64,000 bases of DNA from the NCBI RefSeq assembly GCF_044324875.1, contig NZ_CP172185.1; one strand, 5' to 3'. The stretch comes from Escherichia coli (GTDB lineage Bacteria; Pseudomonadota; Gammaproteobacteria; Enterobacterales; Enterobacteriaceae). Positions 1-64,000 of this stretch are shown piece by piece (positions within the stretch are counted from its first letter, which is position 1; every line of letters starts with the position of its first letter). The notes below the pieces were generated by a model. It had not been told where the DNA came from. It did no database searches and saw only the letters and a program-made list of their open reading frames with translations. The position numbers and the translations under genes are program-made.

Positions 1-1346
1 CGTTTTTCGATACGTTCAGGCAGTTGTGCTGCAATTTGCGGCGTCGAATCGACTAGAATGATGCAGAATTCATCGCCACCGAGTCGGATGGCATAATCAC
101 TTTTACGAATCGACTGTTTAATCGCCTGAGCTAATAACGTAATCGCTAAATCCCCCTCCTGATGACCGAGGGTGTCATTTATTTGCTTTAACTTGTCCAT
201 GTCAATTGCAATAAACATCACCGAAGAACCGGATTGCACCAGTTTTTGCAACCGCTGCTCCAGTTCAGGGGTTAAAATTTTGCGATTATACAGTCCTGTC
301 ATCGCATCACTAATATTTTCTCGCGACACATTTTGGTATAAACGGAAGTGCATCCGCACCATATTCAGCAAAATTAACGCCGTCAAAATCCAGAACAGAA
401 CGCTTTTCCACGAAGACGTGATAAAGTAAAGAATATCAATGGATAACGAGACACGAATACCGCCCGGTAAGTCATGGACGTAACTGACATACTGGAACAG
501 ATTATCTTCGCTCTGGTTGATGATAATGTCGCGCCCCGAATCGGTATCGGTTAGCGTGACATTGAGAAAACGCCAGAGGAGAGGGCGGTCATGAGTGTAA
601 AAGATATTCCGCAGATTGTTTTTGTTAATATCCAGCAGCACAATCCCTTTTAGCTGCCCTGCGACATATACCGGCGTCAGCAAACTCATCACGTTCTGTT
701 TAGTACGCTGATCCTGGTAAATGCTCGATAAAACGGTACGCCCGGTAAATACCTTTTCAATATCTTTGCGATCGATGCCAATACTTCCTGACTGCAGGAA
801 AGACCAGTTATTCATCGCAAAGTATTCAACATTAACCGGCTCATAAAAATAGACATAGCGGTCATTGAGATCGAGATAATAGTGAAATTTCTCTTCGGCC
901 ATCCCAAGACCTGAACCGTAATCATCCTGGTGGCGGTTGCCTTCCACTGCCTGATCAAAAGCGGGTAATAGTGCTGCAGCTTCCACAATTGTGTCGCAGT
1001 CAGTGGATGCGGTTTGTAGTGTGCCGCGTAAGCCAGGGTATTTATGGGCAGTCAGGTTTAAGCCATGGGTATTATTGGCAGACTCAAAAGCCTCGCAGAT
1101 GGCGCGCCGCTGTTCTGGCGACACTTCCGACTGCTCAGCAGCGAGAGCGCGCATCACATGCGCGGCAATACTCTGATTCTGATACTTATCATAAAGAAAG
1201 GAGGAGTCTGCTCTCTGCACGATATAGCGCAGATAGGCACTCATTGCTCTGTCACTGGCGACAAGTTCAAAAATAAGGAAGGAAGATGTCAGCACAATGA
1301 CACTTGCGGCGATAAAATGCCGGAGCATTCTATGGTGCAATTTCAT
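1..1346 (-). CDS. dgcJ: Diguanylate cyclase DgcJ/YeaJ, partial (C-terminal end runs off the window start)
   Basis: Minus-strand frame starts at ATG 1344-1346 (MKLHHRMLRHF...) and stays open to position 1; GGDEF motif (RLGGDEF) is encoded near the window start; synteny next to yeaI. Not in the ORF track because it is open-ended. Confidence 0.85.
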   Translation of the reverse strand, partial: MKLHHRMLRHFIAASVIVLTSSFLIFELVASDRAMSAYLRYIVQRADSSFLYDKYQNQSIAAHVMRALAAEQSEVSPEQRRAICEAFESANNTHGLNLTAHKYPGLRGTLQTASTDCDTIVEAAALLPAFDQAVEGNRHQDDYGSGLGMAEEKFHYYLDLNDRYVYFYEPVNVEYFAMNNWSFLQSGSIGIDRKDIEKVFTGRTVLSSIYQDQRTKQNVMSLLTPVYVAGQLKGIVLLDINKNNLRNIFYTHDRPLLWRFLNVTLTDTDSGRDIIINQSEDNLFQYVSYVHDLPGGIRVSLSIDILYFITSSWKSVLFWILTALILLNMVRMHFRLYQNVSRENISDAMTGLYNRKILTPELEQRLQKLVQSGSSVMFIAIDMDKLKQINDTLGHQEGDLAITLLAQAIKQSIRKSDYAIRLGGDEFCIILVDSTPQIAAQLPERIEK

Positions 1347-1526
1347 GATAAATGGCACTCCTTCGGTTAGTGAAACGAGAAAACCAGATAAAGTTCGATT
1401 GCGGCCTGGCACAGGGGCGCTAATTATACTCATCTCTGCGCCGCTGGGGAGGGGAAATTTAGGGGTAATAGTAATAAATTGTATGCAAAAGCCACGCAAA
1501 AAGCATGGCTCTGAATATTTTTGCAC

Positions 1527-3002
1527 TTAAATATGATGAATAATCACTTTGTTGCCCCCCTCGCTTTTCGCTTCGCGTAAGGCTTTATCTGCTTCCGTCA
1601 TGACAAGCGAGATATTACGTGTGTCACCCGTTGAAAAAACCGTGCCAATACTGATGGTCATTTGCTCAGGAACATCATATCTGTTACTAAAGCCGGTCAG
1701 GAGTTCGACATTTTTACGCATACGTTCCGCAATGATTTTTGCCTGGGCACTATTCAGTTCGGTAAATAGCAAGCCAAACACCTCACCCTCCAGTCGCGCT
1801 AAAATATCATCGGGGCGGATGCTTTGCTGGATAATATCGACAATTGAAACCAGCACTTTATCACCCACACGATGTCCCCATTGGGCATTGATGCGTTTGA
1901 ACTGATTAATATCAACCAGCATGACACAGAAGTCCTTAACAACAGGTCGCGACAATAATGACTCTACGCTGTTGAAAAAGTAGCGCCGATTATAAATATT
2001 GGTCAGCACATCATGAACTGCCAGTTTGCTGGAGAGTTGCAGTTCCTGAAAAATGTTATAAATCAGAAAAGACACAACAAACAGTTTACTGGAGACTTCA
2101 ATCCCGCGACTGATATACCAGATGGTGTAATTATACTCATCCAGAGTTAGTAGAAGTAAGTTGCAGCATAGCGATGCCAGACATAATAATGCTATTAACG
2201 GCCATAGTTCGCTGGCTAATCGTGTACGCATGATAATAAAGAACAGTAAAAATGCCCACAGACAAACCAATATTTTTGTATAGTTGATTCCCCAGGTCGC
2301 AGTATGGTTGTCCGGACAGTAATCGACGACATACAAAGAATAGTCAGCGTTATAACTGCTCAGATTGTGTGCCAGAAGGGGAAAAACTAAAAAAGGAATC
2401 AGCGCCAGTAACAGAATGCCAGTTTTTTTCTTATTGTTGTCAAGGATGTTGTCTTTCCCATAACAAAAGAGCGCCAGCGAGGTTAAACAAATGAAACTGA
2501 GTTGGCGGAAAATATAGAAAATAGAAACATCATTCGACTTTGTCTGGATCAGTGTACTGCCGTTGATTGGTTTATGGATAATTACAATGGTTTCAACTAA
2601 ATAGATAAGGCCACTTAAAAATGCAAGGCTTAAAATGAGTGTTGGTAAAATTTGTTTGTTAGTGAAATACTTCATTAACATGAAAAGAAAAATGACGGCG
2701 TTAAGGAAAAACAAAGCCACAACAACCATCAGGTAATTCATCTGTGGGATGAGTTTTACATTCGTGTTTTCGTTATATAAGGTAGTAATGCAAAATAAAA
2801 TTAACGTCAGCAATAAGCTGAAAATAAAAAAGCCTTGAGCTTTTAATTTTTGTGTACCCATAGAAGCCATAAAAAGGAGAGCAATGTGAGTGCTGGATTT
2901 TATTGATGGCAGAGATATATAGTTTTGACCAGGATCAATTTTCGTTAACGATAAAAAATATTTAAAGAATAACCCCAGGGAAACACGTGTTGACCGAATC
3001 AT
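1527..3002 (-). CDS. cdgI: c-di-GMP-binding degenerate GGDEF protein CdgI/YeaI
   Basis: 491-aa ORF with N-terminal multi-pass membrane region and C-terminal GGDEF-like domain whose signature reads EGEVF; conserved position between yeaJ and yeaH. Confidence 0.9.
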   Translation of the reverse strand: MIRSTRVSLGLFFKYFLSLTKIDPGQNYISLPSIKSSTHIALLFMASMGTQKLKAQGFFIFSLLLTLILFCITTLYNENTNVKLIPQMNYLMVVVALFFLNAVIFLFMLMKYFTNKQILPTLILSLAFLSGLIYLVETIVIIHKPINGSTLIQTKSNDVSIFYIFRQLSFICLTSLALFCYGKDNILDNNKKKTGILLLALIPFLVFPLLAHNLSSYNADYSLYVVDYCPDNHTATWGINYTKILVCLWAFLLFFIIMRTRLASELWPLIALLCLASLCCNLLLLTLDEYNYTIWYISRGIEVSSKLFVVSFLIYNIFQELQLSSKLAVHDVLTNIYNRRYFFNSVESLLSRPVVKDFCVMLVDINQFKRINAQWGHRVGDKVLVSIVDIIQQSIRPDDILARLEGEVFGLLFTELNSAQAKIIAERMRKNVELLTGFSNRYDVPEQMTISIGTVFSTGDTRNISLVMTEADKALREAKSEGGNKVIIHHI

Positions 3003-3148
3003 TTTTCCGAATGATTGTTTTCTGGAACTAAATTGTGTAAAGGTTATGCTGTCATATTTAAAGCGATTGTAAGCTAATGTATGTAATAAATGAGATAATT
3101 TACAGTGAGCTAAAAATCAGCCAGGCGATAATGACCCGGCTGATAGTT

Positions 3149-4444
<1,296 letters not shown>

Positions 4445-4544
4445 CTACATTTGCCAACTGTATGCTACGCCTGTGTTGCCGCTTCTCTGGCCCACGGTTC
4501 GCTGTCGTTGTAGGCCCGGTAGCATGTGTACCGGGCCAGGGTTG

Positions 4545-6479
4545 TTAAGACGATTTACGTACGCGCAAATACCATTCGCACAGTAAACGCACCTGTTTAC
4601 GGGTGTAGCCTTTTTCCATCATACGGTCGACAAAATCGTCGTGTTTCTTCTGCTCGTCGGTTGACGTTTTGGCGTTAAACGAAATAACCGGCAACAGCTC
4701 CTCGGTATTGGAGAACATTTTCTTCTCAATAACCGTGCGCAGTTTTTCATAGCTGGTCCAGTTAGGATTGCGTCCGCTGTTATTCGCTCTGGCGCGCAGT
4801 ACGAAGTTAACAATCTCGTTGCGGAAATCTTTTGGATTACTGATCCCCGCCGGTTTCTCGATTTTCTCCAGCTCGGCGTTAAGAGACTCGCGGTCAAACA
4901 ACTGCCCGGTATCCGGATCGCGATACTCCTGATCCTGAATCCAGAAATCCGCGTAGGTAACATAACGGTCGAAAATGTTTTGCCCATATTCGGAATAGGA
5001 TTCAAGGTAGGCCGTCTGGATCTCTTTGCCGATAAACTCGGCATATTTCGGGATCAGATAACCTTTCAGGAACTCCAGATAGCGTTCTGCCTGCTCTTGC
5101 GGGAACTGCTCGCGCTCGATCTGCTGTTCCAGGACGTAGAACAGATGGACCGGGTTTGCCGCCACTTCTACATGATCGAAGTTGAACACGCGGGAGAGGA
5201 TCTTAAACGCAAAACGCGTCGACAGACCGTTCATCCCTTCATCGACACCGGCGTAGTCACGATATTCCTGATACGACTTGGCTTTGGGATCTGTGTCTTT
5301 CAGACTTTCGCCATCATAAACCCGCATCTTTGAATAAATGCTGGAGTTTTCTGGCTCTTTAAGGCGCGAAAGAATGGAAAAACGTGACAGCGTTTCCAGC
5401 GTGCCAGGGGCGCAGGGGGCGTGAGTCAATTCACTGTGATTAAGCAATTTCTCGTAGATTTTGATCTCTTCGGAAATGCGCAAGCAATACGGCACCTTCA
5501 CGATGTATACACGATCGAGGAAGGCTTCGTTGTTTTTGTTATTACGGAAAGTGACCCATTCGGATTCGTTCGAGTGGGCGAGAATAATCCCGTTGAACGG
5601 CAGGGCGGAGATACCTTCCGTCCCGTTGTAGTTACCTTCCTGAGTGGCGGTTAGCAAGGGATGCAGCACTTTAATCGGTGCTTTAAACATCTCAACGAAT
5701 TCCATGATCCCCTGATTGGCGCGGCACAGCGCACCGGAATAGCCGTAGGCGTCCGGGTCATTCTGCGCGTAGTGTTCGAGTTTACGAATATCGACTTTCC
5801 CAACCAGCGCGGAGATGTCCTGGTTGTTCTCATCACCGGGTTCCGTTTTGGCGATAGCAATTTGTTGCAGAATTGACGGCCAGACCTTCACTACCCGGAA
5901 CTTAGTGATATCGCCACCAAATTCATGCAGGCGTTTTGCCGCCCACGGCGACATGATGGTGCCGAGATAACGGCGAGGAATGCCATACTCTTTTTCCAGA
6001 ATCTGCGCATCTTCCTGCGGATTGAAAAGACAGAACGGATGATCGTTGACCGGGCTACGCTCACCGTTGGCGCTCAATACATAAATCGGTACGAGCTGCA
6101 TTAATGATTTCAGTCGCTCAGCAAGCGATGATTTACCCCCACCCACAGGCCCCAGCAGATACAGGATTTGTTTCTTCTCTTCCAGCCCCTGAGCCGCGTG
6201 TTTCAGATAAGAGACAATCTGTTCAATCGCGTCTTCCATGCCGTAAAACTCTTCAAATGCCGGATAACGTGCAATGACCCGGTTAGAAAAGAGTCGAGAA
6301 AGTCTGGGTTCCTGGGCTGTATCGACCATGACAGGCTCACCGATAGCCATCAATAGCCGCTCAGCCGCGTTGGCATAAGCACTGCGATCTTGCCGACAAG
6401 TGGTAAGAAACTCCTGCAGTGTGAACTCTTCGTCCTTGGCAGCTTCATATCGCTGGCGATAGTGATCGAATATATTCAT
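4545..6479 (-). CDS. yeaG: PrkA-family serine protein kinase YeaG
   Basis: 644-aa ORF with Walker-A-like GPVGGGKSS motif; recognised YeaG sequence. Confidence 0.92.
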   Translation of the reverse strand: MNIFDHYRQRYEAAKDEEFTLQEFLTTCRQDRSAYANAAERLLMAIGEPVMVDTAQEPRLSRLFSNRVIARYPAFEEFYGMEDAIEQIVSYLKHAAQGLEEKKQILYLLGPVGGGKSSLAERLKSLMQLVPIYVLSANGERSPVNDHPFCLFNPQEDAQILEKEYGIPRRYLGTIMSPWAAKRLHEFGGDITKFRVVKVWPSILQQIAIAKTEPGDENNQDISALVGKVDIRKLEHYAQNDPDAYGYSGALCRANQGIMEFVEMFKAPIKVLHPLLTATQEGNYNGTEGISALPFNGIILAHSNESEWVTFRNNKNNEAFLDRVYIVKVPYCLRISEEIKIYEKLLNHSELTHAPCAPGTLETLSRFSILSRLKEPENSSIYSKMRVYDGESLKDTDPKAKSYQEYRDYAGVDEGMNGLSTRFAFKILSRVFNFDHVEVAANPVHLFYVLEQQIEREQFPQEQAERYLEFLKGYLIPKYAEFIGKEIQTAYLESYSEYGQNIFDRYVTYADFWIQDQEYRDPDTGQLFDRESLNAELEKIEKPAGISNPKDFRNEIVNFVLRARANNSGRNPNWTSYEKLRTVIEKKMFSNTEELLPVISFNAKTSTDEQKKHDDFVDRMMEKGYTRKQVRLLCEWYLRVRKSS

Positions 6480-6914
6480 GGTATGCCGTCCTTTCGTTTT
6501 TTAGCACAGGTTAAGAGCCGTTCATATGAATAGTAGAGGCTCCCGGAAGAGGTAAACTGAACGACGTCTCTTGCTAAAACACAGCAACTCTCATGCCATT
6601 TTATCGACGATGAGAACAACGTGCCCGGTGATACACCTTCAAAATTAAGCGTAGATGGCAAATGGAAAACTTGCCTGCACGGCTTTCTTAATTTCAATGG
6701 CATATCAACAACTCATCCATAAATTTTGCATAATTAATGTAAAGACCAGGGTCGCCAGTAACGCTAAATTCATTTGGCTGTAAGCGCGGTGTCATCCGCG
6801 TCAGGAAAATTAAACAGTTACTTTAAAAAATGAAAACGTAAAAAGGTTGGGTTTCGATGTATTGACGGGTAAACTTTGTCGCCCGCTAAACATTTGTTTA
6901 AGGAATGATTAATT

Positions 6915-7661
6915 GTGACCAAACTCAAACTTCTGGCACTTGGAGTGCTTATCGCAACGTCTGCAGGCGTAGCGCACGCTGAAGGTAAATTTTCCCTGGG
7001 CGCAGGCGTAGGTGTCGTTGAACACCCATATAAAGATTACGATACCGATGTTTACCCAGTACCGGTAATCAACTATGAAGGCGATAACTTCTGGTTCCGT
7101 GGCTTAGGTGGTGGTTACTACCTGTGGAATGACGCAACGGACAAACTTTCAATTACCGCTTACTGGTCGCCGCTTTACTTCAAAGCTAAAGACAGTGGCG
7201 ATCACCAAATGCGTCACCTGGATGACCGTAAGAGCACCATGATGGCTGGTCTGTCTTATGCTCACTTTACCCAGTACGGTTACCTGCGTACCACCCTGGC
7301 TGGCGATACCCTGGATAACAGCAACGGCATTGTCTGGGATATGGCCTGGTTGTATCGTTACACCAACGGCGGCCTGACCGTGACTCCGGGTATTGGTGTG
7401 CAGTGGAACAGCGAAAACCAGAACGAATACTATTATGGCGTATCGCGCAAAGAGTCCGCTCGCAGCGGTCTGCGTGGCTATAACCCGAACGACAGCTGGA
7501 GCCCTTACCTGGAGCTGAGCGCCAGCTACAACTTCCTCGGCGACTGGAGTGTTTACGGTACCGCGCGCTACACCCGTCTGTCTGATGAAGTTACTGACAG
7601 CCCGATGGTGGATAAATCCTGGACTGGCCTGATTTCTACCGGGATCACCTACAAATTCTGA
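6915..7661 (+). CDS. mipA: MltA-interacting outer membrane protein MipA
   Basis: 248-aa ORF with signal peptide (MTKLKLLALGVLIATSAGVAHA), beta-barrel-like composition and C-terminal Phe; GTG start. Confidence 0.92.
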   Translation: MTKLKLLALGVLIATSAGVAHAEGKFSLGAGVGVVEHPYKDYDTDVYPVPVINYEGDNFWFRGLGGGYYLWNDATDKLSITAYWSPLYFKAKDSGDHQMRHLDDRKSTMMAGLSYAHFTQYGYLRTTLAGDTLDNSNGIVWDMAWLYRYTNGGLTVTPGIGVQWNSENQNEYYYGVSRKESARSGLRGYNPNDSWSPYLELSASYNFLGDWSVYGTARYTRLSDEVTDSPMVDKSWTGLISTGITYKF

Positions 7662-7692
7662 TAATGCATCTTTCCAGGGCATTTTGTGCATA

Positions 7693-7718
7693 AAAACAGG
7701 GCGTCACGCCCTGTTTTG
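7693..7718 (+). terminator. Rho-independent terminator downstream of mipA
   Basis: GC stem acagggcg/cgccctgt with 3-nt loop followed by TTTTG, about 30 bp after the mipA stop. Confidence 0.5.
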
Positions 7719-7750
7719 CATTACGGTGGTGCAATACCTGGGAGGAAACA

Positions 7751-8039
7751 ATGCAACAAAAAATGATTCAATTTAGTGGCGATGTCTCACTGCCAGCCAT
7801 AGGGCAGGGAACATGGTATATGGGCGAAGATGCCAGTCAGCGCAAAACAGAAGTAGCTGCACTACGCGCGGGCATTGAACTCGGTTTAACCCTCATTGAT
7901 ACCGCCGAAATGTATGCCGATGGTGGTGCCGAAAAGGTGGTTGGGGAAGCATTAACCGGTCTGCGAGAGAAGGTCTTTCTCGTCTCTAAAGTCTATCCGT
8001 GGAATGCTGGCGGGCAAAAAGCGATAAATGCATGCGAAG
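7751..8039 (+). pseudogene. yeaE: yeaE (aldo-keto reductase) 5' fragment, interrupted by IS insertion
   Basis: N-terminal 96 codons of YeaE (MQQKMIQFSGDVSLPAIGQGTWYMG...AINACE), then the frame runs into IS sequence and stops at 8056. Confidence 0.85.
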
Positions 8040-8241
8040 TGCAAAATGGCATCTGAATCGATCGCAGTTTGGCATTCGAATCGATCATGATTTGGCATCC
8101 ATCTCCGATCACAGTTTGGCATCACAATCGATCACGATTTGGCATGCTTCCGATCATTGATTGGCATCCTGCCAGTCACTCCGGGAATTAACTCTTTTCA
8201 CCACAGTCTCCATTGCCGTGTTTAAACCAGTGGAGACGTCA

Positions 8242-9807
8242 ATGTCCAGAAAGAGAAAATCCAGGAGCACTATGGAAACCTGTTTTAAGATCCTTCAGCT
8301 CAAGTTCGACAAGAAGCTGACTAACCGTTGTATCGGACTGACGTTACACATCAGCGCCTCAACCGTTTTTGAGGTTCTTGCCCGCTTCAAAGCCTCTTCT
8401 CTGTCATGGCCATTACCTGCTGATATATCCCATGACACGCTGGAGAAACTCATTTTTCCGCCCAAAGACACCTTTGCATCAGAGCTTGTAATGCCTGACA
8501 TGTTGTACTTCGATACGGAAATGAGAAAACCAGGTGTGACGCGGCAACTGTTGTGGATGGAATACAAGGCACAGGCGGGTAACAAAGCGATGGGATACTC
8601 GCACTTCTGCCGTTGCTACCGGGAGTGGAAAAAAACGCGACGTCTCTCCATGCGCCAGGAGCATCGTGCCGGCGAAAAGCTTTTTATCGACTTCTGTGGT
8701 CCTACGGTTCCTGTTATTAATCCGGACACCGGTGAGATACGCCGCGTGGCAATCTTCGTGGCCGTAATGGGGGCGTCCAACTATACCTACGTTGAAGCGT
8801 GCGAAGGTCAGGACATGATGTCATGGTTAAATGCCCACAGCCGTTGCCTGACCTTCCTGGGCGGCGTACCGAAGCTGCTCATCCCCGATAACCTCAGAAG
8901 CGCAGTGAAAAAGGCCGATCGATATGAGCCTGTCATCAACGACAGTTATCAGGCACTGGCTGAGCACTATGGCACGGTTATCATCCCGGCCCGACCACGC
9001 AAACCTAAAGATAAACCAAAAGCAGAAAACGGCGTCCTCATCGTTGAACGATGGCTTCTTGCCCGCATCCGTAATGAAACCTTCCACACGCTCAGGGCGC
9101 TGAATGCGCGCCTTAGGGAGTTACTGACAGACATGAATAACCGGCCAATGAAGGGGTACGGCAATCAAACCCGTGCAGAACGCTTCCGCATACTGGATGC
9201 GCCAGCACTCTCTCCGCTGCCTCTGGCACCTTATGAATACACGGAATACAAAGCTGTGAAGGTTGGCCCTGACTACCACGTTGAATATGCCCGTCACTGG
9301 TACTCCGTTCCACACGAACTGGTCGGTCAGCGTCTGTCACTGAAGGCGGGGCAGTCGGTGGTACAGCTCTGGCACAAGGGGCAGTGTGTGGCGCAACATC
9401 CGCGCAGCACACATGAATATAAACACACAACCAATCCGCTTCACATGCCAGAGCGCCACCGGCAGCACGGGACATGGACACCGGAACGCCTGATCGAGCA
9501 GGGAAAACGTACGGGCCCGTCCACAGGCCGGGTGGTTGAATCCATGCTGAAGGCAAAACCCCATCCGGAACTGGCTTATCGTGCAGTTCTGGGGCTGCTG
9601 GCACTTCAGAAAAAATACGGCCCGGAACGGCTGGAAAAGGCCTGTTACGTTGCCCTGCACTATAACGCCCCTGACAGACGCTTTATCGACAATCTGCTGC
9701 GTCACCATCGGGAGAACCTGGAGCTTCCATTATCCCGCCAGGGCGAACAACATCCGGCATATGCTTCAGAGCATGAAAACCTGCGTGGTCCGGGCTACTA
9801 CCACTGA
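8242..9807 (+). CDS. istA: IS21-family transposase IstA
   Basis: About 520-aa ORF with N-terminal HTH and DDE-type catalytic core typical of IstA; RBS GGAG upstream of ATG 8242; followed by istB. Confidence 0.85.
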   Translation: MSRKRKSRSTMETCFKILQLKFDKKLTNRCIGLTLHISASTVFEVLARFKASSLSWPLPADISHDTLEKLIFPPKDTFASELVMPDMLYFDTEMRKPGVTRQLLWMEYKAQAGNKAMGYSHFCRCYREWKKTRRLSMRQEHRAGEKLFIDFCGPTVPVINPDTGEIRRVAIFVAVMGASNYTYVEACEGQDMMSWLNAHSRCLTFLGGVPKLLIPDNLRSAVKKADRYEPVINDSYQALAEHYGTVIIPARPRKPKDKPKAENGVLIVERWLLARIRNETFHTLRALNARLRELLTDMNNRPMKGYGNQTRAERFRILDAPALSPLPLAPYEYTEYKAVKVGPDYHVEYARHWYSVPHELVGQRLSLKAGQSVVQLWHKGQCVAQHPRSTHEYKHTTNPLHMPERHRQHGTWTPERLIEQGKRTGPSTGRVVESMLKAKPHPELAYRAVLGLLALQKKYGPERLEKACYVALHYNAPDRRFIDNLLRHHRENLELPLSRQGEQHPAYASEHENLRGPGYYH

Positions 9808-9824
9808 CAGAAGGAACAACAGTA

Positions 9825-45481: not shown

Positions 45482-45504
45482 TGATGGATGAAATGAATGA
45501 GGGT

Positions 45505-45657: not shown

Positions 45658-45662
45658 ACCGG

Positions 45663-53596: not shown

Positions 53597-53613
53597 ACAG
53601 CGCTGTTGTGCAG

Positions 53614-53916
53614 TCAACGAGGTTTTCTGTCTTTTCGTCGGTCATTCAGCATCATTAAACGGGTCTCTGCCTCTTTCTGTTCCTGTGGTGTCACTTCCCC
53701 GCACGGCTGACCGTTCAGGTTGTAACGGGCGCCACCTGCTATTAACGCACGGTAATAGCGCGGAGACTGCACATAAGACGCCACTGCTGCATGTAATGTA
53801 CCAGCGCCAAACGCCAGTTCTCGGATGGCGATATCCTGTATCAGGTCGTCAGGTATCCCCACTTTAAGTGGTTTTGTTTTTTTCCCGGTTGAATGACTCA
53901 GGCCAGAGTTCCACAA
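53614..53916 (-). CDS. Hypothetical small protein (100 aa); uncertain, possibly a remnant
   Basis: ORF convergent with the alpA module; an adjacent 64-aa ORF (53931-54125) lies on the same strand, so both may be fragments of one decayed gene. Confidence 0.25.
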   Translation of the reverse strand: MWNSGLSHSTGKKTKPLKVGIPDDLIQDIAIRELAFGAGTLHAAVASYVQSPRYYRALIAGGARYNLNGQPCGEVTPQEQKEAETRLMMLNDRRKDRKPR

Positions 53917-54510
53917 GACGAATAATGCGCTTACGGTTTTTGCTCTGGCGTTTTGTCATGTCGCCACGGTGTTTTATCAGCAGGTTTCTGTTTATCGTTC
54001 AACTGTGGTATCTGGTCACCGGCCTTCATTTTGTATGCTGTGTCCGTTTTATCCTGCAGCGGCGTTGCCGGTGATTTACTGAAAATACCCTGCGGTTTAC
54101 GGTTAATGGTCAGAGTTACCATCAATTTTGTTACCTCGCGCTGTCAATGGAAGTAGTACCTCATCCGATATCTGAAAATGTTTTCCGGTGGATGTTACAG
54201 CGAATTTCATGTAAGACATGTTGTTGTCGGTATTGTTCAGTACTGTGCGTTGTGAGCGTATTCGTTATCAGACAGAGGGGCAGGGAACAAACGTCAGAGG
54301 TTAAGGATATCCGGGAACAAATGGCGTAAACGGACATCTCAGTGCCTGAGAAACAGTACAGGTCAGGCCATCATGGCCTGCAAACAGAGCCCTGGCGACC
54401 CCGTGGCCGAAAACGAAACAATAACCCGCGCGCAGTGCGAGGAATCCGGATGTGAAGCAATCAGCAGGTAATATTAATGGCAGGACCAGCAGGTTCTTTA
54501 AACAAACGAA

Positions 54511-55273
54511 GGTGGTGACTCCAATTAGTAGAACATATATTTTTCGATAAAGGCACCGATGACTTTTTCATGAAGTTCTACAGAGCGCGAGAAACAGATA
54601 GTTCTGCGGGCCAGACGTTTGATTCGGGTTCTCAGAGGTAGATGTTGCGCTCAATGCGCTGAGTAAAAATCTTACCAGTCAGATGCTTCTCCTTCGGTAA
54701 CTCTCTGGTGTAACTACCCCATTCGTCAGTGGTCAACATACCGATGGTAAAAGGGCAAGCAGCGCCAGCAATTCACGACAGGTTTAATCAGTCCGTAGGC
54801 CAAAAGTGTAGGCCAGAACGCCACCAGTTTTCGTGTTGTACGTGTACCAGAGCCAGTGCTGTCGCGCTTTACTGCCGACAAAACTCCATTGCTCATCAAG
54901 TTCGCAGATGAGTGCCATATCAGCATGAGCGACCGGGTATGACGTTATTCTTCGTGGCGAGAGTTTTTTAAAGTCCGGATGACAGTATTAATGCCGATTT
55001 TCAGCGTACGGGCAGTATCGCGAACTCCGGCACCGTTGAAAGCCATTTCAGTGATTTGCTCTTTAACTCCCGGTTTACGGGCCTCGTAACGGTAAGTGAG
55101 CTGAAGCACTCGATGACAGTCACGGCAGCGAAATCGATCATGTCCTTTGGGTTCTTCCCGTGACGGTAAACCTGAACGGACTGGCAACAGGAGCAATGAA
55201 GGTTAACTGTGACCATGAAAGAACCTTAAAAGTGGCTATTATACTCCTAATTCAACTAATTGGAGTCATTACC
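54511..55273 (-). mobile_element. IS1-family insertion sequence (divergent isoform), apparently defective
   Basis: 763 bp; terminal repeats GGTGGTGACTCCAATTAGTAG (left) and AATTGGAGTCATTACC (right); InsA-like and InsB-like coding on the minus strand, each split across two frames. Confidence 0.8.
54945..55216 (-). pseudogene. insA: insA-like gene with internal frameshift
   Basis: Zn-finger N-terminus (MVTVNLHCSCCQSVQVYRHGKNPK) is in one frame and the HTH C-terminus (GHDRFRCRDCHRVLQLTY...AFNGAGVRDTARTLKIGINTVIRTLKNS) in another; downstream InsB-like sequence (...RTRIKRLARRTICFSRSVELHEKVIGAFIEKYMFY) is also split. Confidence 0.6.
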
Positions 55274-55281
55274 GTATTCAT

Positions 55282-55452
55282 AATGGATTAGGTTCAGCAG
55301 TTGCTGAAGTGCTTGTAGAAACTTGTCCTGTGCCCATGCGTCGGGTGGGGGTTAAAGAGCGGTATGGCCAGGTTGAAACTCAGGACTTTTTACAGAGAGA
55401 GTACGGGTTAACCGCGCAAGCTATTGTGGCGGCAGCCAGAGAGCTATTGTAA
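55282..55452 (+). pseudogene. Transketolase C-terminal-domain remnant, truncated by the IS1 insertion
   Basis: Frame encodes ...GLGSAVAEVLVETCPVPMRRVGVKERYGQVETQDFLQREYGLTAQAIVAAARELL-stop, a typical transketolase C-terminal tail, beginning immediately after the IS1 right end with no upstream gene body. Confidence 0.55.
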
Positions 55453-55653
55453 TTCATGGAGTTTGTTTACCATTCTGTTTTTCTTAAAAGTGAGTGTCTG
55501 TGCGGTCACTAAACTCGGTAATAAAGCAGTTCATTGCAGGATAAGAAGCGTTTGGTTGTGTCGTTTTACCGTAAGAACCGACCGCCGTATGTATCCATTA
55601 AGCCAGTATTGGTAACGTAGGTGCCCACCTTTTCAAACTGGTGGGCGCCTGTT

Positions 55654-55826
55654 ATGGAGCAAAAACATTATCCGCAGAACCCCGCAGATCATTTTCAAAT
55701 GAGTTAAACTTCAAATGGTTAAACTGGTTTTGCAACCAGGAGCCTCTGTTGCCCGTATTGCCCGGGAACACGATATCAATGATAACCTCCTGTTCAAATG
55801 GCTCAGACTCTGGCAGAACGTAAGGT
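55654..55826 (+). pseudogene. Transposase helper (HTH OrfA-type) remnant of an unidentified IS
   Basis: Short frames encoding MEQKHYPQNPADHFQMS-stop and ...LQPGASVARIAREHDINDNLLFKWLRLWQ, resembling IS OrfA HTH segments; interrupted by stops. Confidence 0.3.
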
Positions 55827-55904
55827 AAAGGGAGATGAAAAAGGCAATAGCAGAACTGAGTGACAGTGAAACCATTCTGGCGTACAGGGTTGGATGGTGA
55901 AACT

Positions 55905-55938
55905 GATAAAAAACCCTCTGAAAATTCTGTCAGAGGGT
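55905..55938 (-). terminator. Candidate rho-independent terminator (minus strand)
   Basis: Perfect 8-bp stem ccctctga/tcagaggg with 8-nt loop, followed on the minus strand by T6. Confidence 0.35.
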
Positions 55939-56649
55939 GTAGTCAAAAATGGTAGATATTTACGATGCAGTAATGCTTTCACTCCGGTAATTAATTTCCG
56001 TGATTAACTGCTTTCGATCAATAAAGGAATTGCAAAAGTGTGATCTTGTTCACGACATTGTGGATGATAATATGCCTGATGTCTGAATCCGGAAACAGTG
56101 ATCTGGCGGTTTCATGTGAAGTTGACGGATAAAAAATCCGCACGACCAGACAGACGTGCGGTTTACGAAATTCGTAACAAGAGGCTTTTCTACGGATCAC
56201 GTGGTGCGTGCCACGTGAAATTTTTGTAGCGCAAAATGTGTGATGTGTAAATACAAGGAAGGAAAAAAGTTAAATCGGTGGAAGTCCATGCCTGCCACAT
56301 GTATGTCTGCATTCCTCGTTTTGAACAGAATTCTCACCAGACATCGTGAATTTCTCATTCAATCATCAGAGATATTACCCAGGATTTTTATTGTTTTGTG
56401 ATAGCAGTACTTTAAATGTTCAGATGCTAAAATAAGCGCGCTTATTATAATTATAGTTATGATGTTTTATCTGTATGTATTTTAATGATTTTCGCGTCAT
56501 TGCTTTTCTGCTGCTTAAATTGAAGGCGCATATTATACACAATAATATTCCTGGCATTATTAAATTAATAAAAGAGGATTCTTATCACTGTATTTTTGCT
56601 CCGCACTACCGTTCTGGCTGGTGAAGTAATAATACAGGAGAATAACAGA

Positions 56650-58197
56650 ATGCTTAAAAGACGTGATGCTTTTTTAAAGAAAAGCGCGCTGGCAGTGAGT
56701 GTGGCCCTGCTGCTCTCGGCTCAGGCTCAGGCTCAGGATATTTTAATCGGACCGATTGAACCTGGCGAAGATAATAGCTTTCTTGTTGGAGAATCAGTAG
56801 CTGGCCGTTCGATTGATAAAGTAAGAAATGTATGGTTGATTGGTGATGATTCTTTTTTATTAGACTCAAACAGGACTGTGCTTTTGGGGAATAATTCTGA
56901 TGTTGTGAACTCTCCGGGAAGTGTGAGTCTGGGGCATGATGCACTTATTGCTGACTCTGAATGGGGGACTGTTGCAGGAAAAGAAGCGTCACTTATTTCT
57001 TCTCGTCAGAGCTCGGCAATTGGTGCGTTTTCATCTGTGCAGGATTCTACCAGTTCTGTAGCTCTGGGCCATGGCTCACAGGTGTCGGGAGAAAATAACG
57101 TGGTATCTGTTGGTGCCGGGCCTGAGGGATATGGAGAGAGTGTCAAAGGAGCACCGGAAACCCGCCGGATTATAAATGTGTCTGATGGTATCAATAACAC
57201 AGATGCAGCGACGGTAGGGCAACTGAATGAACGATTTGATGATGCACAGGTCTTTTTGTTGCAGACGAATGAAAGAATTGACGAGACAGATAAACGTCTT
57301 TCAACAGTTCATGCTGAACTCAGCAGGGATATTATTGCAGGCACATCGGCAGCGGTGACGTATACAGATGTAACAGCGCTTGCACTTCAGGATGAGATAA
57401 AGGATGGGACGAACAAAGTACGTGATGAGTTGAAATCACAGGGAGACAGTCTGCGTGGTGAGATAGGCGGTGTATACAGAGATGCCCGTGCTCATACTGA
57501 CAGTCAGGTCACAGCAGTACGTGATGAACTGAAGGCAGAGGGAGACAGTCTGCGCGGTGAGATAGGCGGTGTATACAGAGATGCCCGTGCTCATACTGAC
57601 AGTCAGGTTACAGCAGTACGTGATGAACTCAGCAGGGATATTATTGCAGGCACATCGGCAGCGGTGGCGTATACGGATGCATCTTCTCTTGCTCTTCAGG
57701 ATGAAATAAAAGAAAAAGCGGATGAAACAGTTCAGGTTTCCCGGGCTTATACAGATAAAAGTGTACGGGATGCCCGTAAAGAAGCGAAAAGCCAGGCAGA
57801 ACATCTCAGCGATGTGCTTGTGAAGAACAGGGCGCAGACGGATGCAGCAATAGCCTCAAATACAGCAGCGATAAGGAATAACAGTCATCGTCTGGATTTG
57901 ACGGAAGCCTGGCAGAAGATGGCGACAGAGAGAATGAATAATATGCAGGAGCAGATTAAAGAGAACCGGAAGGAGTTAAGGGAGAGTGCAGCCCAGAGCG
58001 CGGCACTGGCAGGTCTTTTCCAGCCATACAGTGTTGGAAAATTTAACGCGACAGCAGCCGTTGGTGGTTACCGTGATGAGCAGGCCATTGCGGTGGGCGT
58101 GGGCTACCGTTTCACAGAGAATGTGGCAGGAAAAGTTGCAGTTGCTGCAGGTGGGTCATCCGCATCGTGGAATGCTGGTGTGAATTTTGAGTTCTGA
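56650..58197 (+). CDS. YadA-type trimeric autotransporter adhesin (515 aa; Eib/Saa-like size class)
   Basis: Signal peptide [29 protein letters not shown], repetitive coiled-coil stalk, and C-terminal YadA-like anchor ending ...[19 protein letters not shown] 9 nt upstream; AT-rich 5' region. Confidence 0.8.
57313..57730 (+). repeat. In-frame tandem and nested repeats inside the adhesin stalk
   Basis: A 105-bp unit (...[33 protein letters not shown]) occurs twice in tandem (about 57424-57528 and 57529-57633), flanked by two copies of a second roughly 100-bp unit ([16 protein letters not shown]...ALQDEIK) at 57313 and 57625. Confidence 0.7.
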
Positions 58198-58258
58198 CAG
58201 GTCAGGATTTAGATATCTGTCCCGGGGGGAGTCCCCCGGGATATAATGAGGTACAGAG

Positions 58259-58714
58259 ATGCTGGATATAATCCTGGCGACGAGAGATATTTATTTTGAA
58301 AAAGCCCTGCGAGAGATATTTGGAACCGTAAGCAGTCGAATCAGATATATAGAAGATGCCATATCAGACAGAAGAAGGGTGCAGTCAGGCAGGTCATTCA
58401 GATATTATTTTGTATTCTGTGATGATGAGTATACAGATATTGTTCGTATTCTTTTTACCGGAGAGGCCTGCTGTATTCTGAATAAGTCGATGCTGAATCT
58501 GAGAGCGGCCGGAGGTGTGTTGACGCTGGAAGAGCGCAGAGCGGTACTGAACCGGTATTACAGAGGTTTAAGTATTGCGGAGATTACAGAAGAGACGGGG
58601 CAGAATGACAAGACGGTATACGGTCATCTTCGTCGTGCACTGCAGCGGTCTGGATTCCGGAAGGGGCGTTTTATAAAGGGGAGAGAAGCGGCGGGGGATT
58701 CAGGTGTTGAATAA
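58259..58714 (+). CDS. Putative transcriptional regulator with C-terminal sigma-70 region 4 / LuxR-type HTH
   Basis: 151-aa ORF; C-terminal LTLEERRAVLNRYYRGLSIAEITEETGQNDKTVYGHLRRALQ resembles sigma region 4/GerE-type HTH; 60 bp downstream of the adhesin gene. Confidence 0.45.
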   Translation: MLDIILATRDIYFEKALREIFGTVSSRIRYIEDAISDRRRVQSGRSFRYYFVFCDDEYTDIVRILFTGEACCILNKSMLNLRAAGGVLTLEERRAVLNRYYRGLSIAEITEETGQNDKTVYGHLRRALQRSGFRKGRFIKGREAAGDSGVE

Positions 58715-58788
58715 TGTATCTTATATTGTGATATTGAACCGCCCCGGGAATCCTGGAGACTAAACTCCCTGAGAAAGAGGTAAACAGA

Positions 58789-59115
58789 ATGACTAAAAAT
58801 ACTCGTTTTTCCCCCGAAGTCCGTCAGAGGGCGATTCGTATGGTTCTGGAAAGTCAGGGCGAATATGACTCACAGTGGGCGGCAATTTGTTCCATTGCCC
58901 CAAAGATTGGCTGTACACCGGAGACTCTGCGTGTCTGGGTACGCCAGCATGAGCGGGATACCGGAGGCGGTGATGGCGGGCTCACCACCGCTGAACGTCA
59001 GCGTCTGAAAGAGCTGGAACGTGAAAATCGTGAACTGCGCCGCAGTAACGATATCCTTCGCCAGGCTTCCGCTTATTTTGCGAAGGCGGAGTTCGACCGC
59101 CTCTGGAAAAAGTGA
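58789..59115 (+). CDS. IS629 transposase OrfA
   Basis: 108-aa [63 protein letters not shown]... matching IS629 OrfA. Confidence 0.9.
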
Positions 59116-60002
59116 TGCCACTGCTGGATAAGCTGCGTAAGCTGTACGGGGTCGGACCGGTATGCAGTGAACTACATATTGCCCCGTCAACGTATTACCA
59201 CTGTCAGCAACAGCGACATCATCCTGATAAACGCAGTGCCCGTGCGCAGCGCGATGACTGGCTGAAGAAAGAGATACTGCGCGTATACGATGGGAATCAT
59301 CAGGTATACGGTGTGCGTAAAGTCTGGCGTCAGTTGTTACGGGAAGGAATCAGGGTAGCCAGATGTACAGTGGCGCGCCTCATGGCGGTTATGGGACTTG
59401 CCGGTGTTCTCCGGGGTAAAAAGGTCCGCACTACCGTCAGCCGGAAAGCCGTTGCCGCAGGCGACCGCGTAAACCGTCAGTTTGTGGCAGAACGTCCTGA
59501 CCAGTTGTGGGTGGCTGATTTTACTTACGTCAGCACATGGCAGGGGGTCGTCTATGTGGCGTTCATCATTGATGTGTTTGCCGGATACATCGTGGGGTGG
59601 CGGGTCTCATCGTCTATGGAAACGACATTCGTGCTGGATGCTCTGGAGCAGGCGTTATGGGCCCGTCGACCGTCCGGCACAGTCCATCACAGTGATAAAG
59701 GTTCTCAGTATGTATCGCTGGCCTACACACAGCGGCTTAAGGAAGCCGGATTACTGGCATCAACAGGAAGTACTGGTGACTCGTATGACAACGCGATGGC
59801 GGAGAGCATCAATGGCCTTTACAAAGCGGAGGTAATACACCGTAAGAGCTGGAAAAACCGGACAGAAGTGGAGCTGGCCACACTCACGTGGGTGGACTGG
59901 TATAACAATCGACGATTGCTGGAAAGGCTGGGCCATATCCCACCGGCAGAAGCAGAAAAAGCTTATTATGCTTCCATCGGAAACGATGATCTGGCAGCCT
60001 GA
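59112..60002 (+). CDS. IS629 transposase OrfB (DDE integrase core)
   Basis: 296-aa ORF overlapping orfA by 4 nt; motifs [16 protein letters not shown] and [15 protein letters not shown]. Confidence 0.9.
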
Positions 60003-60410
60003 GTTCACAGATAAAACACTCTCCAGGAAACCCGGGGCGGTTCATATCGGTGCTGCTGCTGTTATTTTTTGTTGTATTTGTGACGAATGGTTAAGAATAA
60101 AACATGAGTTGGTGATTATCAGGACAGGTTGCTTGTATATGAAGATAACAAAGGCGGCATTTATTTTTGCGCTGTCAGTGTGGAGTGTTGCTGTGATATG
60201 TCTTTTATTATTTGTACTGGTTGTTCTGGGATAGCTATAGTGGAATTATTATTTTTTTAAGACTATGGTTTATATTTTTATTCGGCAATATTTCTGTAAA
60301 CAATTAAATATCAGAAAGGCGTGTTGTATGCGTGAACACGCCTGAGTATGTATACAGAGATTGTTAATTTGGAGAGAATAATTACAGTTGTTATTTATTT
60401 GACGTCCTGA

Positions 60411-60695
60411 TTAGTGAAAAAACCAGTCATCAGCAGTTTCCCAGACTTCCTGCAGCGTTTCCTGTATGAACTTCTGAGCGTTTTCTTTATCTACGGCTCT
60501 TAAAATGGTCAGTCCGTCATTACTGGCGGATTTTACTATAACCTCCACATCGTCATATCGTTTTCTGGTACGGCGAGACATTTCCTGTTGTAGAGCAGGT
60601 ACAGAGCCTTTTGGCATTTTGCTGAATTTTTCTTTAGCGATACAGATCTCAATACGAATAAAAGTCCCTCTGCACTGTGTTATTTTTATCTGCAT
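60411..60695 (-). CDS. DinI-family protein (DNA-damage-inducible protein I-like)
   Basis: C-terminus [18 protein letters not shown] matches the DinI signature [25 protein letters not shown] resembles the DinI N-terminus MRIEVTIAK; true start within the 94-aa track ORF is uncertain. Confidence 0.6.
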
Positions 60696-61541
60696 GAATA
60701 AACAGTGTCAATAGATAAGATTGGTTGTAAGGAATCAATGGAGCATGTATGGGACATTTTTAACCGACTAAATTCACAGAAGTTCGTAGGCATCGAAAAC
60801 GAATCATCTGTCCAACCCTTTAAAAACGGCTCTCTTGGACGATTTTCGTCGTTTTTTAAAATGCAACAAGTACGTTGTTCATATGATTTCATTCCATCTC
60901 ATGGGACTGGCGCTACCTTTGTTTGATCTCCCTTGGTATGAGAATTTTTCTGAAATTTTTGGACATTTAGTAGGGTTCTGGTCCATTGAAATTGTTCGCA
61001 GATATTTACGAAACAGAATTACTCATGAGCCAGACCTTGAGATCCATTTAGGCTCAAACAGATAATGTATTGAATTATAAAAATGGCGCAAATACAGTGC
61101 CATTTTTATGGGGTAAATGTTACTTATTTCCTTCTGATACAGGAGAAAAAAGGTCTGATGCAGGTAGCCAATGAGCCTGTAACTCCACTTCGATACTGTA
61201 GAACTGGAGATTTCTACGGAGGAAGACACGTTGTTGCTGGAAGTGAGGAGAAATCTCGGGTGATGTTGAATCATGTTAATACATCAGTAGCACTGGATAT
61301 CGGGAGAACGGTACTACCAGAGGGACAGCATACGCCCGCTACAGTTTGGCGGGCGTAAGGGCATTAAGATTTTTAGAGAGAGCGTTCAGAATTCTGTGTC
61401 ACGTTAAAAATTCTACAGTGTCATCACAGTATTCAGTCGCCCTTCAAAATAAATGGCTAACTGCGACAATGTCAAATTCCAGCTCTGGATCGGCATTGTC
61501 CATTTTTTCTGTACGTTCATCAGCCCCAGATAAAGCAGCTT

Positions 61542-61981
61542 CTACAGACTATTTTCATTCGGGAAAGCACCTTTGGTTTTGGTCAGTTTCCTGAACTGGC
61601 GATGGACTGATTCAATCGCATTTGTGGTGTAAATGACCTTGCGGATATTTGCCGGATAGCGGAAGTATGCTGACAGGTTTTCCCACTTGCGACGCCACGA
61701 CTGAAGCACCACCGGATATTGCTGGCCCCATTTCGCCTCCAGCTCATCCAGCGCCGTTTCTGCGGCTTCTTTCGACACCGCGCGATATACCGGCTTCAGG
61801 TCGGCCATGAACGCTTTGTGGTGTTTTGCCCTCCAGATTCAGCGCCAGCACCGTGTAAACGACCTTGCTCTGGTAGCGGCCATCCTCCCTGATTTTATAG
61901 TGAATGGCATCCAGCCATACGAAGGGGTAAACCTTCTCCAGCGGGCGCTGTTGCCACTGTTTTAACTCAGGAATGACCTTA
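61542..61981 (-). pseudogene. IS256-family (mutator-type) transposase remnant, internally deleted and truncated by the IS66-family insertion
   Basis: Minus-strand frames encode ...IPELKQWQQRPLEKVYPFVWLDAIHYKIREDGRYQSKVVYTVLALNLEGK and, in another frame, MADLKPVYRAVSKEAAETALDELEAKWGQQYPVVLQSWRRKWENLSAYFRYPANIRKVIYTTNAIESVHRQFRKLTKTKGAFPNENSL; the segment between them is too short. Confidence 0.7.
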
Positions 61982-62018
61982 GTAAGCGTACAGCGAGGGC
62001 CGTATTGACGGGGATGTG

Positions 62019-63557
62019 TTATTCAGCTGGCAGTGCTATGCGCCACGGAAGCAGTTCGCTGACCCGGTTGACCGGCCAGTCTGCTATGACGCCAAGCACA
62101 TGGCGAAGGTAGCTTTCTGGATCCACGTCATTCAGTTTGCACGTCCCTATCAGGCTGTACAGTAGCGCTCCCCGCTCACCACCATGGCCAGAGCCGAAGA
62201 ACAGGAAGTTTTTACGACCCAGACTTACCGCCCGCAGGGCATTTTCAGCGATGTTGTTGTCGATTTCCACCCAGCCATCGTTCGCATAGTACGTCAGTGC
62301 CGGCCACTGGTTAAGTGCGTACGCGAACGCCTTCGCCAACTCTGAGTGTCGCGACAGGGTCTTCATCTTTTCACGCAACCAGCTTTCCAGGGATTTCAAC
62401 AGCGGTTTCGTTTTTCGCTGACGTTCAGCAAGCCGCTGCTCTGCCGGCATTCCCCTTATATCCGCCTCTATGGCGTACAACTGACCGATCTGCTCCAGGG
62501 CTTCTTCCGTCAGTGCTGACGGGATGCGGACGTGCACATCGTGGATCTTTCGGCGGGCATGAGCCCAGCAGGCAGCTTCCGTTATCCCACCATTGCGATA
62601 CAGCTCGTTGAACCCGGCGTACGCATCCGCTTGCAGCACACCGCTGAAGCAAGCAAGATGAGTCTGCGGATGGATGCCTTTTCTGTCCGGGCTGTAAGCG
62701 AACCACACTGCAGGTGCCAACGCTGACCCGGCATTGCGGTCATCACGAACATACGCCCACAACCGCCCGGTCTTCGTCTTCTTATTACCCGGCATCAGTA
62801 CCTGGACCGGGGTATCATCGGCATGGAGTTTGCCGTCAGTCATGACATAGCCATGAAGCGCCTCTTCCAGCGGAGACAGCAGCCGGCAGCATGCATCCAC
62901 CCAGCCCGACAGCAGTGAACGGCTCAGCTCCACACCTTGCCGGCCGTATATTTCTGACTGGCGATACAGCGGGGTGTGCTCTGCATACTTCGAGGTCAGC
63001 ACGCGGGCCAGCAGCCCCGGTCCGGCGATACCCCGCTCGATGGGCCGCGAAGGTGCAGGTGCCTGCACGATGGCATCGCACTGAGTACAGGCATGTTTTT
63101 CCCGTACCGTCCGGATAACCCGGAAGGCGCTACGCATCAACTCCAGCTGTTCGGCGGTATCCTCGCCCAGATAGCTCAGTGAACCGCCGCAGTTCGGGCA
63201 GCACGGCGCCGCAGGCAACAGTCGCTTTTCGTCACGGGGTAGTGATTCAGGGAACGGCTTACGGATGCGGGTCTGACGCAACGGACGCTGTACTGCCGGG
63301 TCATACACCCTACCAGTCAGCGTATCGCTCTCTTTCTGAAGCCGGTTCAGATCGGCTTCCATTTGTGCGATACGGCGGGAGACTTTTTCGGAACGACTGC
63401 CGAAGTTCATCCGGCGGAGTTTATCCAGCTGCGCCTGCAGATGGTCTATTTCGCGCTCCCGGTTGCTCAGCTTTTCCTGCAGGGCGTGGATCAGCGCTTC
63501 CTGTTCGGCCAGGCGCTGTTTCAGCAGGAAGATGTCGTCAGAAGAGATGTCGTTCAT
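62019..63557 (-). CDS. IS66-family transposase (large ORF)
   Basis: 512-aa ORF with N-terminal coiled coil ([20 protein letters not shown]), zinc-finger CCPNCGG...CTQCD and DDE core typical of IS66 transposases. Confidence 0.85.
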
Positions 63558-63606
63558 AAGCCCGTATTTTACCGGGCTTATTCTGTGACAACCAGGATAA
63601 AGAGAT

Positions 63607-63954
63607 TTACAGCATGGTCAGGGAGGTCAGCAGCCGCTTAGGCTGTCGCCAGTCGATACCTTCCAGCAGCATCGCCAGCTGCGCCTGTGTAAGGAACACT
63701 TTGCCATCACGGGCTGACGGCCAGGCGAAGCGCCCACGCTCCAGCCGTTTGGTCAGGAGGCACAGTCCGTCACCGGTGGACCACAGCAGTTTAACCTGAC
63801 TGCCGCTGCGGCCCCGGAAAATGAAAACATGGCCGGACATGGGATCGTCTTTCAGCGCCGTCTGTACTTTCGCAGCCAGGCCGTTGAAGCCATTTCTCAT
63901 ATCGGTGATACCGGCAACCAGCCAAATTTTGGTCCCGGAAGGTAAAGGGATCAT
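63607..63954 (-). CDS. IS66-family accessory protein TnpB (orf2)
   Basis: 115-aa [34 protein letters not shown]...[36 protein letters not shown] matching IS66 Orf2. Confidence 0.88.
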
Positions 63955-64000
63955 CGCTTCAGTTCCTGTATCAGCAGAGTCAGGAGCTTTTCGCTGACAT
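63951..64000 (-). CDS. IS66-family orf1 (TnpA helper), C-terminal end only; rest lies beyond the window
   Basis: Minus-strand frame ending ...[12 protein letters not shown] with TGA overlapping the tnpB ATG (ATGA), the standard IS66 orf1/orf2 coupling. Confidence 0.5.
   Translation of the reverse strand, partial: VSEKLLTLLIQELKR

Follow-up and report, generated by a model that had tools for sequence, protein, structure and literature searches.

A stretch of 64,000 nucleotides of Escherichia coli chromosome (assembly GCF_044324875.1, contig NZ_CP172185.1), which we refer to in its whole length as the window, carries seven insertion sequence (IS) elements or remnants of them. The first-pass annotation took this density as more typical of Shigella, or of an IS-expanded E. 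coli lineage, than of K-12. Its list of elements, the families named, the interrupted yeaE gene and the truncated transketolase gene were all correct, but the step from these to an expanded lineage is not borne out by the comparisons described here. We consider it probable that the window is explained by ordinary build-up of IS elements in a pathogenicity island together with two recent insertions into the core chromosome. The structures of the elements, their target duplications, the empty sites, the fossils shared between strains and the comparison with K-12 and strain NRZ14408 are direct observations. The insertions in the island and in yeaE were probably neutral in effect, and the source genome as a whole presumably has an unremarkable IS load. 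Mechanistically, islands would arrive already bearing IS elements and would tolerate further insertions since little of their content is under selection, and the elements could pile up there as nested, truncated and decayed copies. The old fossils in this island, namely an IS1-family element, a transketolase stump and a fragment of a TnpA gene, would have come with it, while an IS629-group element (at an intergenic site) and ISEc8 (in an old IS256 remnant) would be recent insertions of circulating elements. In the core, IS1397 would recently have entered its preferred target, a repetitive extragenic palindromic (REP) sequence, and an ISSso4-like element of the IS21 family would have knocked out yeaE.

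Comparison by megablast with 5426 complete E. coli genomes, a collection that does not include Shigella, identified the window as E. coli chromosome, with a best match of 99.4% identity for the query made from its first part (part 1). It is made up of 40.2 kb of core chromosome (1-40197) and 23.8 kb of an accessory island, the integrase-distal end of which is present (40198-64000). The core is collinear with K-12 MG1655, in reverse orientation, over positions 1-8039, 10679-31003 and 32539-40197. The region extends from dgcJ to ynjB and has no IS element in K-12, and the core differs from K-12 only by two IS elements and the absence of ynjI. When aligned to the K-12 proteins, 30 of the 31 complete core genes match over their full length with no frameshift, yeaE alone being split, and the core metabolic operons are all intact. 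The six IS-derived elements and the orphan transposase-helper fragment that had been listed are all present, with refined coordinates (Table 1), and they fall into five families (IS21, IS3, IS1, IS256 and IS66, with two elements in IS3), in agreement with the earlier count of at least five. Four are intact: the ISSso4-like IS21 element, IS1397, the IS629-group element and ISEc8, the last of these cut by the window end. The remainder consist of one full-length but dead IS1-family element, the IS256 remnant and the IS66-family TnpA fragment. Two of the elements (IS21-family and IS1397) lie in the core and five IS-derived elements lie in the island. Self-comparison of the 64-kb window revealed no IS type that occurs twice, all seven elements being different, and the four intact ones have near-identical copies (99.4-100% identity) in ordinary E. 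coli.

The median E. coli chromosome carries 32 IS elements, with a usual range of about 22-57, compared with 229-348 per chromosome in Shigella and an average of 9.26 per 100 kb in S. dysenteriae Sd1 (PMC7373316). The window has 7.8 full-length or 10.9 IS-derived elements per 100 kb. If 32 IS elements were spread uniformly over a chromosome, five or more full-length ones would fall in 64 kb with a Poisson probability of 8e-5; since IS elements are not uniformly spread along genomes, this value speaks for local clustering only. An equally dense stretch is found in K-12 itself. The CP4-6 region of MG1655 (256-306 kb) has five full IS elements (IS1I, IS30A, IS5A, IS1B and IS1C) in 50 kb, together with three fragments (IS911A, IS30B and ISX), with IS30A nested in IS911A. 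There too IS1I splits crl, which is a core gene, and IS1B cuts the island gene afuB. The count in the window is therefore ordinary and the contrast with K-12 fails. As K-12 CP4-6 is equally dense and the island accounts for five of the seven elements, density does not point to Shigella or an IS-expanded lineage over K-12, as had been supposed. Where a single window takes in a genomic island, its IS density cannot be extended to the whole genome.

The density does match the Sd1 average, and the E. coli-only collection holds no genome near-identical to the source, as might be expected if the window came from Shigella or enteroinvasive E. coli (EIEC) with genome-wide IS expansion and gene decay. 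In Shigella, however, 85-99% of the IS load consists of IS1, IS2, IS4, IS600 and IS911, in many copies each (PMC7373316). None of the five is active here: IS2, IS4, IS600 and IS911 are absent from the 64-kb window, and its sole IS1-family element is divergent, dead and found also in strains that are not Shigella. The chance that a Shigella-like 64-kb stretch would be without any of the five expanded types is 0.8-7%. Two features would mark a Shigella-type genome, a load dominated by a few repeated types and widespread inactivation of core genes, and the window displays neither of them. The core metabolic operons are intact and the island is of the type found in extraintestinal and avian pathogenic E. 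coli (ExPEC/APEC), relatives' copies of which carry aerobactin, sit and iha. With no repeated IS type, with the expanded types missing or inactive, and with 30 of the 31 complete core genes intact, the Shigella or IS-expanded reading is contradicted on each point, and we give an origin in Shigella or EIEC hardly any credence.

The first of the two core insertions inactivates yeaE, as had been proposed, by splitting it after codon 96. Collinearity with K-12 stops at 8039 and resumes at 10679, and the pentanucleotide CGAAG, which is single in K-12, is found on both sides of the insertion, within the 4-8 bp that we took as the range for target duplications of the IS21 family. The inserted element starts with TGC and ends with GCA, has repeated sub-terminal GGCATC/GATCG motifs, and combines istA (a DDE transposase) and istB (an AAA+ helper ATPase) with terminal repeats and a short duplication, all of which are characteristic of that family. 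The label ISSso4-like is taken from the annotation of comparator copies by the Prokaryotic Genome Annotation Pipeline (PGAP). Other chromosomes and plasmids of E. coli carry copies with 100% identity, and the type is present at full length in 225 of the 5426 genomes, with a median of one place per genome with any match and a maximum of 23. K-12 YeaE is annotated as a methylglyoxal reductase. A second gene with this annotation, ydjG, is intact in the window, and yeaE is a non-essential aldo-keto reductase gene. A look-up of the exact protein encoded by the yeaE::IS fusion open reading frame (ORF) returned only short-read assemblies (SRR31072984 and two further samples). One short-read contig of SRR31072984 (Logan contig 229) is 100% identical to window positions 4751-8066, a length of 3316 bases, which implies that the same clone has been sequenced before; all three samples share the contig. 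Exact-protein look-ups gave no record for the yeaE 3′ fragment from either of two assumed starts, and an island protein was seen only on short, metagenome-like contigs, while the alleles of CdgI and TopB are so widespread that they say little.

In strain MS 200-1, the 2639-bp ISSso4-like element also interrupts yeaE (locus L001, 8251-11751), at a point 176 bp upstream of that in the window and in the same orientation. The target duplication there is 7 bp long, GCTGCAC, as against CGAAG in the window, and the two strains are unrelated. Since the duplications differ, the two insertions are independent. The shared targeting of yeaE could reflect a hot spot or a coincidence. That the same element should hit the same gene twice, in a gene which is otherwise contiguous in 5421 of 5425 genomes, is what one would expect if yeaE were a preferred target for the ISSso4-like element, or if its loss were selected. 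However, there are more than 20 copies of the element in MS 200-1 and several hundred full-length copies overall, which puts the chance of coincidence for an 855-bp gene at roughly 5-10%. The two target sequences have no obvious similarity, and there is no known phenotype that favours loss of yeaE. Preferential targeting or selected loss therefore seems highly improbable.

The second core insertion had been described as IS150-like. It is real, and is the IS3-family element IS1397. As features of IS1397 we looked for overlapping ORFs read via a -1 frameshift, inverted repeats of about 25 bp (TGAAC...), a target duplication of 3-4 bp and a REP target. The element has two overlapping ORFs, with orfA open in frame 0 and orfB open in frame -1, and is nine substitutions away from the intact copy annotated in NRZ14408. 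It is flanked by a 3-bp duplication, TTT, and lies inside the loop of a REP palindromic unit in the spacer between topB and gdhA, where it disrupts no gene; joining the two flanks restores the REP sequence GGCCGGATAAGGCGTTTGCGCTGTATCCGGC. Specificity of IS1397 for REP palindromic units is reported in the passage of PMC1525189 that cites Clement 1999 and Wilde 2001 and 2003. The insertion resembles the published ones in its central-loop site and 3-bp duplication, nothing notable differs, and it is a further natural example of REP insertion. NRZ14408 (locus L002, 6540-9370) also has an IS1397 in the topB-gdhA REP, in the opposite orientation, with the insertion point offset by 1 bp and a duplication of GTT, and this copy carries a nested IS1414. 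The same REP has thus been hit independently by IS1397 in the window and in NRZ14408. In 23AR0806, OZ547223 and HH45, IS1397 is found at this REP in the orientation seen in the window (window 31060-32535). The neighbourhood varies in one further respect: ynjI, which in K-12 sits between gdhA and topB, is missing at 31004-31081 / 32514-32538, and NRZ14408 and 23AR0806 lack it as well, so that it is a lineage-variable gene.

Within the island, three features are old. For the IS1 family we expected a length of about 768 bp, terminal repeats starting GGTRATG and the genes insA and insB. The element has both inverted repeats, GGTGGTGACTCCAATTAGT and GGTAATGACTCCAATTAGT, and no target duplication, and is a dead, divergent member of the family which is annotated as a pseudogene also in NRZ14408 and GPEC996. 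It takes the place of a 5.3-kb accessory operon that is present, without the IS1 element, in FDAARGOS_1287 (locus L017, 16166-21449). There the operon is intact (L017, 16166-21628) and encodes a LacI regulator, IIA, IIB and IIC components of an ascorbate-type phosphotransferase system (PTS) and a two-subunit (split) transketolase. The transketolase fragment adjoining the IS1-family element in the window is indeed truncated, only the last 58 codons of the gene being left. Comparators annotate this stump as 'transketolase family protein, missing N-terminus', while the intact gene is seen in FDAARGOS_1287. Three other strains likewise have the orphan TnpA fragment, annotated as a partial transposase. 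All three features are found at corresponding positions in NRZ14408, GPEC996 and others, and are inherited island fossils common to unrelated strains. The PTS/transketolase operon was probably removed, and the stump left, by an adjacent deletion that IS1 mediated in an ancestral island, which would fit the missing target duplication. The stump is island cargo lost long ago, and so is no decayed metabolic gene of this genome; its truncation, which had been counted as pseudogenisation in the source strain, was inherited with the island. Gene fragments of this kind in islands should not be taken as decay of housekeeping genes.

The other elements of the island lie towards the window end. The IS629-group element has inverted repeats starting TGAACCGCCCCGGG, sits at an intergenic site with the duplication TAT, and has the structure of IS629 (1310 bp, orfA of 108 aa, orfB of 296 aa, the pseudoknot and a 3-bp duplication). 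Its OrfA differs at two residues from what we take to be the IS629 OrfA, which serves as a lead only and is no test. Copies 99.9% identical exist elsewhere, where the comparators are labelled merely 'IS3 family', and the type is found at full length in 3042 of the 5426 genomes, with a median of four places. As the site is empty in NRZ14408, the insertion is recent. A whole IS256-family element would have a single Mutator-type transposase gene between inverted repeats; only a 3′ remnant is present, interrupted by ISEc8, and it is 88-90% identical to an IS256 pseudogene beside ireA in other strains. For ISEc8, which is nested within this remnant, we expected the tnpA-tnpB-tnpC gene set and terminal repeats starting GTAAGCG. 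The genes tnpC and tnpB and one terminus, GTAAGCGT at 61982, are present, while the window ends before the other terminus and most of tnpA. A patchwork (60045-61377) separates the IS629-group element from the IS256 remnant, and is made up of a weak DUF1440 (YagU-like) fragment and a DinI-like gene (60411-60695, minus strand, Pfam E=1e-15). The segment 60045-60681 is 99% identical to DinI-like loci elsewhere, and the patchwork suggests recombination between mobile elements.

Several observations weigh against an interpretation in terms of ordinary build-up and are better accommodated if the source is an E. coli lineage with a raised and recently active IS load, the window being representative and yeaE one of many genes freshly knocked out. 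Such a genome would hold tens of copies of the ISSso4-like IS21 element, IS1397, IS629 and/or ISEc8. The exact yeaE::IS21 junction of the window is private, being found in none of the 5426 complete genomes, and disruption of yeaE is otherwise rare, although this is one single event. The presence in 64 kb of four different intact IS elements close to consensus, 99.4-100% identical to circulating copies, suggests recent transposition or acquisition. The contig from the same clone in SRR31072984 terminates 27 bp into the IS21 element, which fits the presence of more than one copy in that genome. Two intact IS elements in 40 kb of core have a probability of about 0.03 at 32 IS elements per genome under a uniform model, a value biased by the choice of the window for its IS content. 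Bursts of these elements do occur, with 21-23 places for this IS21 type in MS 200-1 and at least 40 pieces for IS1397 in BH100. On the other hand, no IS type is seen twice in the window, only one of the 31 complete core genes is disrupted, and of the two core insertions one, into a REP, is site-specific and harmless. For the part-1 query the closest backbone matches (99.4%) have a single place each, as would fit genomes with no IS21 copy. A raised load across the source genome is therefore unlikely. It is still less likely that an IS burst is just beginning in the source lineage, with the ISSso4-like IS21 element, IS1397, IS629 and ISEc8 as its drivers in place of the classical Shigella set. 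If this were so, the IS21 element might hit yeaE repeatedly and the window would be a sample of a genome-wide process, not of an island effect, and would show, as a natural case of modest use, how IS expansion starts in E. coli other than Shigella. The importance of the window beyond its correct annotation is slight, and all of the elements and mechanisms in it are already known.

Table 1. Insertion sequences, remnants, interrupted genes and the island in the window
Feature	Positions	Strand	Evidence
yeaE 5′ part, codons 1-96	7751-8039	+	tblastn, K-12 YeaE residues 1-96 to 7751-8038, 99% identity
IS21-family element (ISSso4-like), intact, 2639 bp	8040-10678	+	NCBIfam and junction sequences
istA	8272-9807	+	open; NCBIfam transpos_IS21, 284 bits (cut-off 160)
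istB	9824-10579	+	open; NCBIfam IS21_help_AAA, 257 bits (cut-off 200)
yeaE 3′ part, codons 93-284 including duplicated CGAAG	10679-11249	+	tblastn, residues 93-284 to 10671-11246
IS1397 (IS3 family), intact, 1432 bp	31082-32513	-	99.4% identical to annotated NRZ14408 IS1397
Accessory island, integrase-distal end, inserted at ynjA 3′ end	40198-64000	.	K-12 collinearity ends at 40197; homology to NRZ14408 island
IS1-family element, full-length but degenerate, 763 bp	54511-55273	-	InsA domains E=1e-30, ORFs broken
Transketolase C-subunit 3′ stump, 58 codons	55276-55452	+	Pfam Transketolase_C E=0.007, weak; profile positions 75-124 of 124
Orphan IS66-family TnpA fragment	55706-55816	+	Pfam HTH_Tnp_1 E=7e-10; 59% amino acid identity to ISEc22 TnpA residues 19-55
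IS629-group element (IS3 family), intact, 1310 bp	58735-60044	+	NCBIfam IS3 transposase, 309 bits
IS629-group orfA, 108 aa	58789-59115	+	intact
ALIL frameshift-stimulating pseudoknot in IS629-group element	59070-59186	+	Rfam RF01497, 116 bits (gathering threshold 50), full-length
IS629-group orfB, 296 aa	59112-60002	+	intact
IS256-family remnant, 3′ part, about 600 bp	61378-61981	-	Pfam Transposase_mut E=7e-36, profile positions 267-377
ISEc8 (IS66 family), runs off window end	61982-64000	-	99.9% identical to annotated GPEC996 ISEc8
ISEc8 tnpC	62019-63557	-	intact; NCBIfam IS66 transposase, 457 bits
ISEc8 tnpB	63607-63954	-	intact; NCBIfam IS66 TnpB, 120 bits

The island is built of CP4-type modules (DUF4942, CbtA/YeeU, RadC, antirestriction, DUF932, GTPase and YagK/YfjJ by Pfam) with the addition of a YadA-like adhesin, and is 98-100% identical to the island of NRZ14408 and of about 25 other genomes. 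Domain scans of raw regions used six-frame translations with stops given as X, except that 55200-56655 was scanned in the three forward frames only. The island begins 7 bp inside the 3′ end of ynjA (40191-40197) with no tRNA nearby, and no tRNA gene was detected within the 64-kb window. We considered whether the island disrupts ynjA and rejected this, as ynjA is intact where it adjoins the integrase end of the NRZ14408 island. The 7 bp have the appearance of a piece of a short, imperfect repeat for attachment: TCCTTA[A/G]GAA, which is seen at the island ends (window 40180-40260; locus L031, 16930-18853), may be the attachment core, and a short-word comparison found no convincing repeat of greater length. 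Besides the mobile elements, the island has a YadA-like trimeric-autotransporter adhesin gene (56650-58197) with internal tandem repeats of about 100 bp (57299-57713). A large protein collection has no record of this exact protein, so that this repeat-number variant appears to be rare. It is followed by a gene for a sigma-70 region-4-like regulator (58259-58714). A ProQ/FinO-family gene (53613-54121, minus strand) has two frameshifts that are not IS-related, and is annotated as a pseudogene alike in NRZ14408, GPEC996 and FDAARGOS_1287.

The island of NRZ14408, an ExPEC strain, starts after ynjB, is about 98 kb long, and has aerobactin, sit and iha. It shares with the window the same ynjB junction, 98-100% identity over window positions 40198-58734, and the same IS1 fossil, transketolase stump, TnpA fragment, YadA-like adhesin and sigma-like regulator. 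It differs by a further IS3-family insertion, at the counterpart of window position 49029, and by the lack of the IS629-group insertion, and it departs from the window after about 60246, where it continues with IS256/ISL3 pseudogenes and the aerobactin genes, whereas the window has the DinI-like gene, the IS256 remnant and ISEc8. Islands of this kind are rich in IS elements: the NRZ14408 island has about 40 IS-related annotated features in 98 kb, and the versions in GPEC996 and FDAARGOS_1287 have 5-6 IS elements in 24-26 kb. The K-12 CP4-6 region is likewise composed of CP4-type modules, represented there by the YkfI/YafW toxin-antitoxin pair and by RadC-like, antirestriction-type, DUF932, GTPase and YagK genes. 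The two differ in their IS types, which are IS1, IS5, IS30 and IS911 in CP4-6 and IS21, IS1397, IS629, ISEc8 and IS256 in the window, and in their sites, CP4-6 being integrated at tRNA-thrW and the island of the window at the 3′ end of ynjA, without a tRNA. Compared with Shigella and EIEC (Hawkey et al. 2020, PMC7373316), the density is of the same order and one conserved core gene is interrupted, but in those genomes many copies of a few IS types are spread over core genes, with wide gene decay, whereas in the window each element is of a different type.

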